Of a DNA stretch of 56,519 nt, positions 47,652 to 47,855 are shown in pieces; the first letter of the stretch is position 1, and each line of letters begins with the position of its first letter. Source of the DNA: Escherichia coli (GTDB taxonomy: Bacteria; Pseudomonadota; Gammaproteobacteria; Enterobacterales; Enterobacteriaceae); assembly GCF_003334815.1 (NCBI RefSeq), contig NZ_QOWO01000027.1; one strand, written 5' to 3'. The notes beneath the pieces were generated by a model that saw only the letters and a list, made by a program, of their open reading frames with translations, made no database searches and was not told the DNA's origin. The position numbers were made by a program, and so were the translations under genes.

Positions 47652-47855
47652 ATGAAAAACGTGTTTAAGGCACTCACTGTATTACTTACTCTCTTCAGCC
47701 TGACGGGCTGCGGTCTGAAAGGTCCGCTCTATTTCCCGCCTGCAGATAAAAACGCACCGCCGCCGACCAAACCGGTAGAGACGCAAACGCAATCCACGGT
47801 GCCGGATAAAAACGATCGCGCCACTGGCGATGGTCCATCCCAGGTGAATTACTAA
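47652..47855 (+). CDS. lptM: Small lipoprotein LptM (YifL)
   Basis: 67-aa ORF with a signal peptide and lipobox (LFSLTGC), followed by a Pro-rich, low-complexity mature region. Confidence 0.85.
   Translation: MKNVFKALTVLLTLFSLTGCGLKGPLYFPPADKNAPPPTKPVETQTQSTVPDKNDRATGDGPSQVNY

Follow-up and report, generated by a model that had tools for sequence, protein, structure and literature searches.

The open reading frame found at 47652-47855 on the + strand of the window, i.e., the whole stretch of 56,519 nucleotides that was analysed, is the ordinary Escherichia coli lptM gene, formerly yifL, and nothing in the analysis speaks against this identity. Our analysis showed the identity of the gene, its lipoprotein signal, its conserved motif, its conserved place in the gene order and the purifying selection acting on it. 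We hold with high confidence a joint explanation, according to which lptM would be the first gene of an lptM-dapF-yigA-xerC-yigB cluster and would encode a triacylated outer-membrane lipoprotein aiding both the maturation of LptD/LptE and the gating of LPS. lptM is already characterised, named, structurally solved and routinely annotated, and its presence here adds nothing new in itself.

Identity of the lptM gene

The size of the reading frame proves nothing by itself, as the 7 kb around it are overlapped by 78 ORFs of 30 aa or more. What decides the matter is homology, together with conservation and the identity to a solved protein. All of the 67 residues are identical to those of two PDB chains, 8h1r_C ('Uncharacterized lipoprotein YifL') and 9ia2_C ('LPS-assembly lipoprotein LptM'), with an E value of about 1e-42, and the comparison with LptM/YifL of E. 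coli K-12 (UniProt P0ADN6; PDB 8H1R, 9IA2, 9IA5, 9RPR, 9RPS, 9KN3) revealed no difference, neither in the 67 residues nor in the position of the gene, between cyaY and dapF. LptD/E/M complexes containing an identical LptM have been solved (PDB 8H1R, 9IA2 and 9IA5), and the mature part of the protein is identical to chains 9rpr_C and 9kn3_C, which both begin at residue 20. The NCBIfam model NF047847, 'LPS translocon maturation chaperone LptM', is matched over its entire length (profile positions 1-31 of 31) with 44.5 bits for a cut-off of 27.7, and the Pfam model PF13627 (LptM_cons) is matched over profile positions 2-23 of 23 with E = 3.3e-8. In the RefSeq records inspected, the gene at this site is called lptM, with the product name 'LPS translocon maturation chaperone LptM' and the accession WP_000799889.1. 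A 601-nt stretch that spans lptM is matched in each of the 5,426 complete E. coli genomes and at least 80% covered in 5,425 of them, and annotations of both lptM and dapF are present in all 10 records among the matches listed. One other NCBIfam model, 'putative T6SS immunity periplasmic lipoprotein', gave 11.5 bits for a cut-off of 43 (E = 0.25), and this match was set aside as a likeness between signal peptides only.

An earlier, sequence-only reading had described a 67-aa ORF with an LTGC lipobox and a Pro-rich mature part and had named it LptM (YifL). All of these elements are present at 47652-47855, and the name is borne out by the 67/67 identity in the PDB, the RefSeq lptM, the score above the NF047847 cut-off and the PF13627 match. 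That YifL had been renamed LptM for a role in the maturation of the LPS translocon, which was mentioned in that reading, is documented in PMC10567701. Either of two outcomes would have spoken against the reading, namely the lack of a lipoprotein signal or of orthologues at this position, and neither occurred: rule-based matching gave a signal, and orthologues exist at this position. It had also remarked that the gene easily escapes automated callers, which is out of date, the NCBI pipeline having a dedicated model and naming the gene; the remark may hold for early annotations, and yifL carries what we take to be a late-assigned b-number.

The lipoprotein signal and the architecture of LptM

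The ORF listing of the window gives an ATG-to-TAA reading frame that encodes the 67 aa MKNVFKALTVLLTLFSLTGCGLKGPLYFPPADKNAPPPTKPVETQTQSTVPDKNDRATGDGPSQVNY, along which the following features can be recognised:

47652..47855, + strand: lptM (yifL) coding sequence, 67 codons and TAA (ORF list, PDB identity, RefSeq WP_000799889.1, NF047847, PF13627)
47652..47708, + strand: signal peptide of LptM, residues 1-19, MKNVFKALTVLLTLFSLTG (n-region, h-region and lipobox)
47700..47711, + strand: lipobox L17-T18-G19-C20, Cys20 being the acylated first mature residue (regular-expression matches)
47709..47741, + strand: conserved mature N-terminal segment C20-P30 (the stretch hit by the NCBIfam and Pfam models)
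47742..47852, + strand: Pro/Thr/Gln-rich flexible C-terminal tail, residues 31-67 (composition; alignment of 12 orthologues)

The n-region of the signal peptide carries two Lys and is followed by the h-region ALTVLLTLFS, with a mean Kyte-Doolittle value of +2.18. In matching that is rule-based only, the lipobox LTGC fits the classic [LVI][ASTVI][GAS]C rule as well as a PROSITE PS51257-style pattern. From the lipobox rule, we infer that signal peptidase II cuts before Cys20, and this agrees with chains 9rpr_C and 9kn3_C beginning at residue 20 and with the mass of 5888 Da given for mature triacylated LptM in the native-MS work. The mature protein of 48 aa is hydrophilic (mean Kyte-Doolittle value of -1.07), it contains 9 Pro (18.75%), and it falls within the short-protein criterion of PMC10567701 (fewer than about 70 aa after the motif). 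Its N-terminus, CGLKGPLYF (residues 20-28), displays the family motif C-G-x-K-G-P-L-Y. Position +2 is Gly21, with no Asp there, in line with sorting to the outer membrane; the Gly at +2 of LptM has indeed been taken to mean that there is no inner-membrane retention signal and has been read as outer-membrane targeting (PMC10567701).

In four loci of related genera (L004, L016, L027 and L073; Citrobacter, Superficieibacter and Pseudescherichia), an in-frame ATG upstream of lptM extends the gene by 7-14 codons, e.g., MIENRKYELYRQSIMKN. This longer form is most likely an artefact of start-codon choice. The equivalent of the extension does not share the reading frame in the window, where it is closed by an in-frame TAG at 47613-47615.

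Conservation, gene order and selection

A reference scan of the GTDB collection, in which each species is represented by a single genome, used a degenerate DNA pattern that stands for G-C-G-x-K-G-P-L-Y-x-P. It yielded at least 120 loci (L002-L121), with about 2 chance matches estimated for the whole collection, and since these loci were chosen by the motif itself, they show the context of motif-bearing genes and not the full range of the family; the presence of CGxKGPLY in them is by construction. Among the matches listed, 119 of 120 motifs lie in a small ORF (35-145 aa, with a median of 58) behind a hydrophobic leader, and 115 of these small ORFs offer a lipobox-like context. The LptM model is also passed by three distant small ORFs, from Pseudomonas, Ramlibacter and Haemophilus.

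Gene orders around these loci were established by tblastn with the neighbouring proteins of the window together with LysA (TIGR01048, 527 bits). The 120 matches listed divide into lptM-dapF (27), lptM-lysA-dapF (36), lptM-lysA (41), other orders (8) and loci too short to judge (8). This means that lysA and/or dapF lie directly downstream of the lptM-like ORF in 104 of the 112 judgeable loci among the matches listed, which belong to the Gamma- and Betaproteobacteria, and one of those with another order, L105, is probably an lptM-lysA-dapF locus with a partial alignment. Among these same matches, the lptM-dapF order is that of the Enterobacterales and of some others, lptM-lysA-dapF is that of the Pseudomonadales and of Oceanospirillales-like genomes, and lptM-lysA without dapF is that of the Betaproteobacteria and the Pasteurellaceae. 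A divergent cyaY is found at most 400 nt upstream of lptM in 55 of the loci listed. An unbiased search with PF13627 had reached the same conclusion as our motif-selected loci: about 79% of the Gammaproteobacteria and 57% of the Alphaproteobacteria proved to have lptM-like genes (PMC10567701), and the commonest neighbour of these genes is a PF02784 decarboxylase, at an average gap of less than 32 nt (supplement of PMC10567701).

Closer to E. coli, 12 Enterobacteriaceae orthologues, each of exactly 67 codons, gave dN/dS values of 0.04-0.27 (pS 0.36-0.75, pN 0.02-0.26), in a comparison in which the synonymous sites are near saturation. These values are low, and lptM is therefore a protein-coding gene under purifying selection. 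In the alignment of the 12 orthologues, the conserved parts are the signal with its lipobox, the segment CGLKGPLYFPPADK and a C-terminal NDR..GxGP(S/T)QVxY. This C-terminal element, in the form NDR..G(D/G)GP(S/T)QV(N/D)Y, is common to Citrobacter, Enterobacter, Kluyvera, Pluralibacter, Pseudescherichia and others, whose proteins share 39-65 of 67 residues with that of the window.

The LptM-like lipoproteins of other Proteobacteria (PF13627/NF047847), among which LppL of P. aeruginosa is a named homologue (PMC12065857), likewise combine a signal peptide, a lipobox and a mature CGxKGPLY(x)P; they are likewise short (median of 58 aa in at least 119 ORFs), and their genes also lie directly upstream of lysA and/or dapF. 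They differ by their C-terminal tails: among the matches listed, the tail end of the window LptM, NDR..GDGPSQVNY, is kept only in Enterobacteriaceae, and outside this family the tails are unrelated to it. They also differ by the immediate neighbour, as lysA is placed between lptM and dapF in Pseudomonadales and relatives, whereas lptM adjoins dapF in the window and in the Enterobacterales.

The gene cluster and the spacer upstream of it

The surroundings of lptM in the window consist of the following features:

47190..47651, no strand: cyaY-lptM spacer, 462 nt (annotation)
47315-47493, - strand: DKNYY-family pseudogene remnant (in RefSeq, a frameshifted 'DKNYY family protein' fragment of 179 nt)
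47856..47891, + strand: lptM-dapF spacer, 36 nt, containing the dapF ribosome-binding site GGAG (sequence)
47892..48716, + strand: dapF, diaminopimelate epimerase (ORF; RefSeq annotation transferred from L001, strain ER1709)
48713..49420, + strand: yigA (DUF484) (ORF and RefSeq)
49417..50313, + strand: xerC, tyrosine recombinase (ORF and RefSeq)
50313..51029, + strand: yigB, phosphatase (ORF and RefSeq)

The annotation of strain ER1709 reads, in order, hemC, cyaA, cyaY, the DKNYY pseudogene fragment, lptM, dapF, yigA, xerC, yigB and uvrD, and the ORFs of the window are arranged likewise, which, with the matches given above, marks the window as a piece of the E. coli chromosome. From the stop of lptM, there are 36 nt to the RefSeq start of dapF at 47892 and 33 nt to the ATG at 47889. 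Two adjacent in-frame ATGs (47889-47894) indeed open dapF, of which RefSeq uses the second (MQFSK...) and the ORF list the first (MMQFSK...). Further downstream, stop and start codons overlap by 4 nt between dapF and yigA (48713-48716), by 4 nt between yigA and xerC (49417-49420) and by 1 nt between xerC and yigB (50313), which suggests that translation may be coupled along dapF-yigA-xerC-yigB.

ER1709 (L001) is identical to the window over 47400-48000, but it is annotated with a frameshifted cyaA and with an internal stop in yigA. The cyaA (44283-46829) and yigA (48713-49420) ORFs of the window are intact, so that it does not come from ER1709; cyaA opens with TTG in the ORF list.

On the + strand, the consensus scan of 46800-48100 gave neither a sigma-70 promoter-like site upstream of lptM nor a terminator-like site; a scan of the same region for Rfam elements (E<=1) gave none that was significant. 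Because no upstream promoter was found in the consensus scan, placing lptM at the head of the operon relies on spacing, gene order and the listings of two papers, in which yifL-dapF-yigA-xerC-yigB figures as one operon. From these, lptM can be inferred to be co-transcribed with dapF, presumably from a promoter within the cyaY-lptM spacer. As early as 1990, Colloms et al. reportedly described a multicistronic unit to which both xerC and dapF belong. The sequence-only reading had put lptM 36 bp upstream of dapF, which is right for the RefSeq start, and had made it the first gene of the cluster, a placement that fits the spacing, the absence of a + strand terminator-like site in the region scanned, the gene overlaps, the published listings and the conserved order.

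Two terminator-like hairpins were found on the - strand, at 47543-47519 in the spacer upstream of lptM and at 47831-47815 inside lptM. No - strand gene ends there, and two hairpins compare with a mean of 1.4 in shuffled sequence, so that they are probably due to chance rather than real terminators. The same scan of Rfam returned a viral frameshift element at 20.4 bits for a threshold of 55 (E = 0.47), a sub-threshold match that we likewise attribute to chance.

The cyaY-lptM spacer is variable among E. coli strains: it is at least 80% covered in only 3,837 of the 5,426 genomes, with identities of 80-95% in about 1,900. In strain EcPF20, it holds an island on the opposite strand, which ends about 350 nt before lptM and which comprises a DUF3304 protein, a hypothetical protein of 502 aa and a frameshifted DKNYY gene. 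In E. albertii, cyaY is 2.26 kb from lptM. Taken together over the window, L122 (1-3376) and L022, the content of the spacer gives the impression of an accessory island in decay, at a place where insertions recur.

The abundance of short ORFs around lptM could lead one to take it for a chance ORF without any product, to which we give no weight at all: the identity to the solved protein and the dN/dS values refute it, and the family cut-offs that are passed and the conserved synteny also contradict it. A regulatory use of the same ORF can also be considered: given its small size, the mere 36 nt that separate it from dapF and its linkage with lysA/dapF across Proteobacteria, it could chiefly be a leader (an upstream ORF) that controls the translation or transcription of dapF and the genes that follow, with a peptide that is incidental. 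Such a leader would, however, be at odds with the purifying selection on the protein (dN/dS 0.04-0.27), with a full lipoprotein signal and with a product that has been detected, purified and resolved in complexes, and neither a terminator- or attenuator-like hairpin on the + strand nor a significant Rfam element was found in 46800-48100. The dN/dS values, the lipoprotein signal and the solved complexes effectively refute it, and we consider its probability to be very close to nil.

The role of LptM at the LPS translocon

What is said here on the acylation of LptM, its binding to LptDE and its effect on LptD oxidation comes from published work, where it concerns an identical sequence. In the proposed mechanism, the 67-aa precursor would be exported, lipid-modified on Cys20 within LTGC, cut by signal peptidase II and triacylated, and the Gly at +2 would direct it to the outer membrane. 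LptM would then join LptD and LptE in a 1:1:1 complex during the assembly of LptD at the BAM machinery. Its C20-P30 segment would lie inside the LptD barrel, against the wall formed by strands beta1-beta4 and at the hinge to the beta-taco domain, and its acyl chains would be located at the beta1/beta26 lateral gate, the putative exit of the lipid A part of LPS. LptM may in this way stabilise a conformation of LptD that leads to the efficient formation of two native inter-domain disulfides, and, in the mature translocon, it may also help LPS to reach the gate.

Several lines of published work underlie this mechanism. LptM co-purifies with LptDE (Yang et al. 2023, PMC10567701), and native MS detected a 1:1:1 complex, with an extra mass of 5,900 +/- 25 Da to be compared with 5,888 Da for mature triacylated LptM (PMC10567701). 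The delta-lptM mutant accumulates an LptD intermediate with the non-native C1-C2 disulfide, and the deletion acts in synergy with delta-bamB and with delta-dsbA, while together with delta-dsbC it is synthetically lethal; lptM alone is non-essential, and its deletion alone does not sensitise the cells to low-dose vancomycin or SDS (all in PMC10567701). A mature peptide of nine residues, C20-F28 (residues 20-28), is enough to restore LptD maturation, and cryo-EM finds only C20-P30 of LptM ordered, the C-terminal tail being disordered and also dispensable for LptD maturation (Miyazaki et al., bioRxiv 10.1101/2025.01.03.631273). These authors use the term 'barrel rivet' for LptM, with a more tightly closed barrel seam (bioRxiv 10.1101/2025.01.03.631273). 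In the LptDEM and LptDEMY structures, residues 20-29 of LptM and part of its acyl tails are resolved, one of these tails intercalating between beta1 and beta26 of LptD (Chen et al., bioRxiv 10.1101/2025.04.10.648201). In that same study, the deletion of LptM residues 22-30 abolished binding, the absence of LptM reduced the LPS crosslink at LptD T236 by more than 90%, and LptM could be bound at the same time as LPS.

The publications concur on the site that LptM occupies, and the structures differ in detail on the mechanism, which is seen as a tightly closed seam (the 'barrel rivet'), as a weakened or opened beta1-beta26 gate, or as the passage of LptM itself as a transported cargo. In the last case, LptM would be a small lipoprotein exposed at the surface: extracted by LolCDE and handed to LptA, it would be driven through LptDE into the outer leaflet, as LPS is, and the complexes would be transport intermediates. 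This is how a crystal structure combining LptDE of P. aeruginosa and LptM of E. coli has been read (Luo et al. 2025, PMC12065857), and the same work brings immunofluorescence and dot-blot data for the surface exposure of LptM, along with crosslinks of LptM to LptA and LolCDE, while its authors term the evidence for the Lol-to-Lpt crosstalk preliminary (PMC12065857). Mere transit is, however, difficult to reconcile with a peptide of nine mature residues (C20-F28) that restores LptD maturation and with an LptM engaged in a stable, stoichiometric 1:1:1 complex. Moreover, LPS crosslinks to LptD with LptM still bound, and LptM is enclosed between two inter-domain connections, which points to its entry during assembly rather than in transit. 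Cargo as the main role of LptM is a minority rival that we judge unlikely, and the model of LptM as a subunit for assembly and gating is the best supported, even though the two roles are not mutually exclusive.

LptM can be compared with LptE and LptY (YedD), the other lipoprotein subunits of the LPS translocon in the outer membrane, which also bind LptD and influence the conformation it takes, and with which LptM has no sequence relationship. Inside the barrel, LptE forms an essential, folded plug, whereas LptM is a non-essential and largely disordered peptide. LptY binds the beta-taco domain, whereas LptM binds through its 10-11 N-terminal residues and its acyl chains.

What the finding means

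LysA and DapF are the last two enzymes of the synthesis of meso-diaminopimelate and lysine. The near-universal placement of lptM before their genes could go beyond an inherited order and reflect a functional coupling, through a shared promoter or translational coupling, that would tie the maturation of the LPS translocon to the supply of meso-DAP, a precursor of peptidoglycan. Drawn from gene order, this idea is in our opinion improbable, and the only published use of the lptM neighbourhood is as an orthology argument (PMC10567701).

The LptDE translocon is a target for antibiotics, and LptM illustrates, as already published, that a peptide of about 10 residues with three acyl chains can control a 26-strand barrel. 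The present analysis closes the lptM finding as correct and ordinary, and it records the strong conservation of the order in which lptM precedes lysA/dapF. If the coupling were true, the growth of the outer membrane and that of the cell wall would be coordinated.
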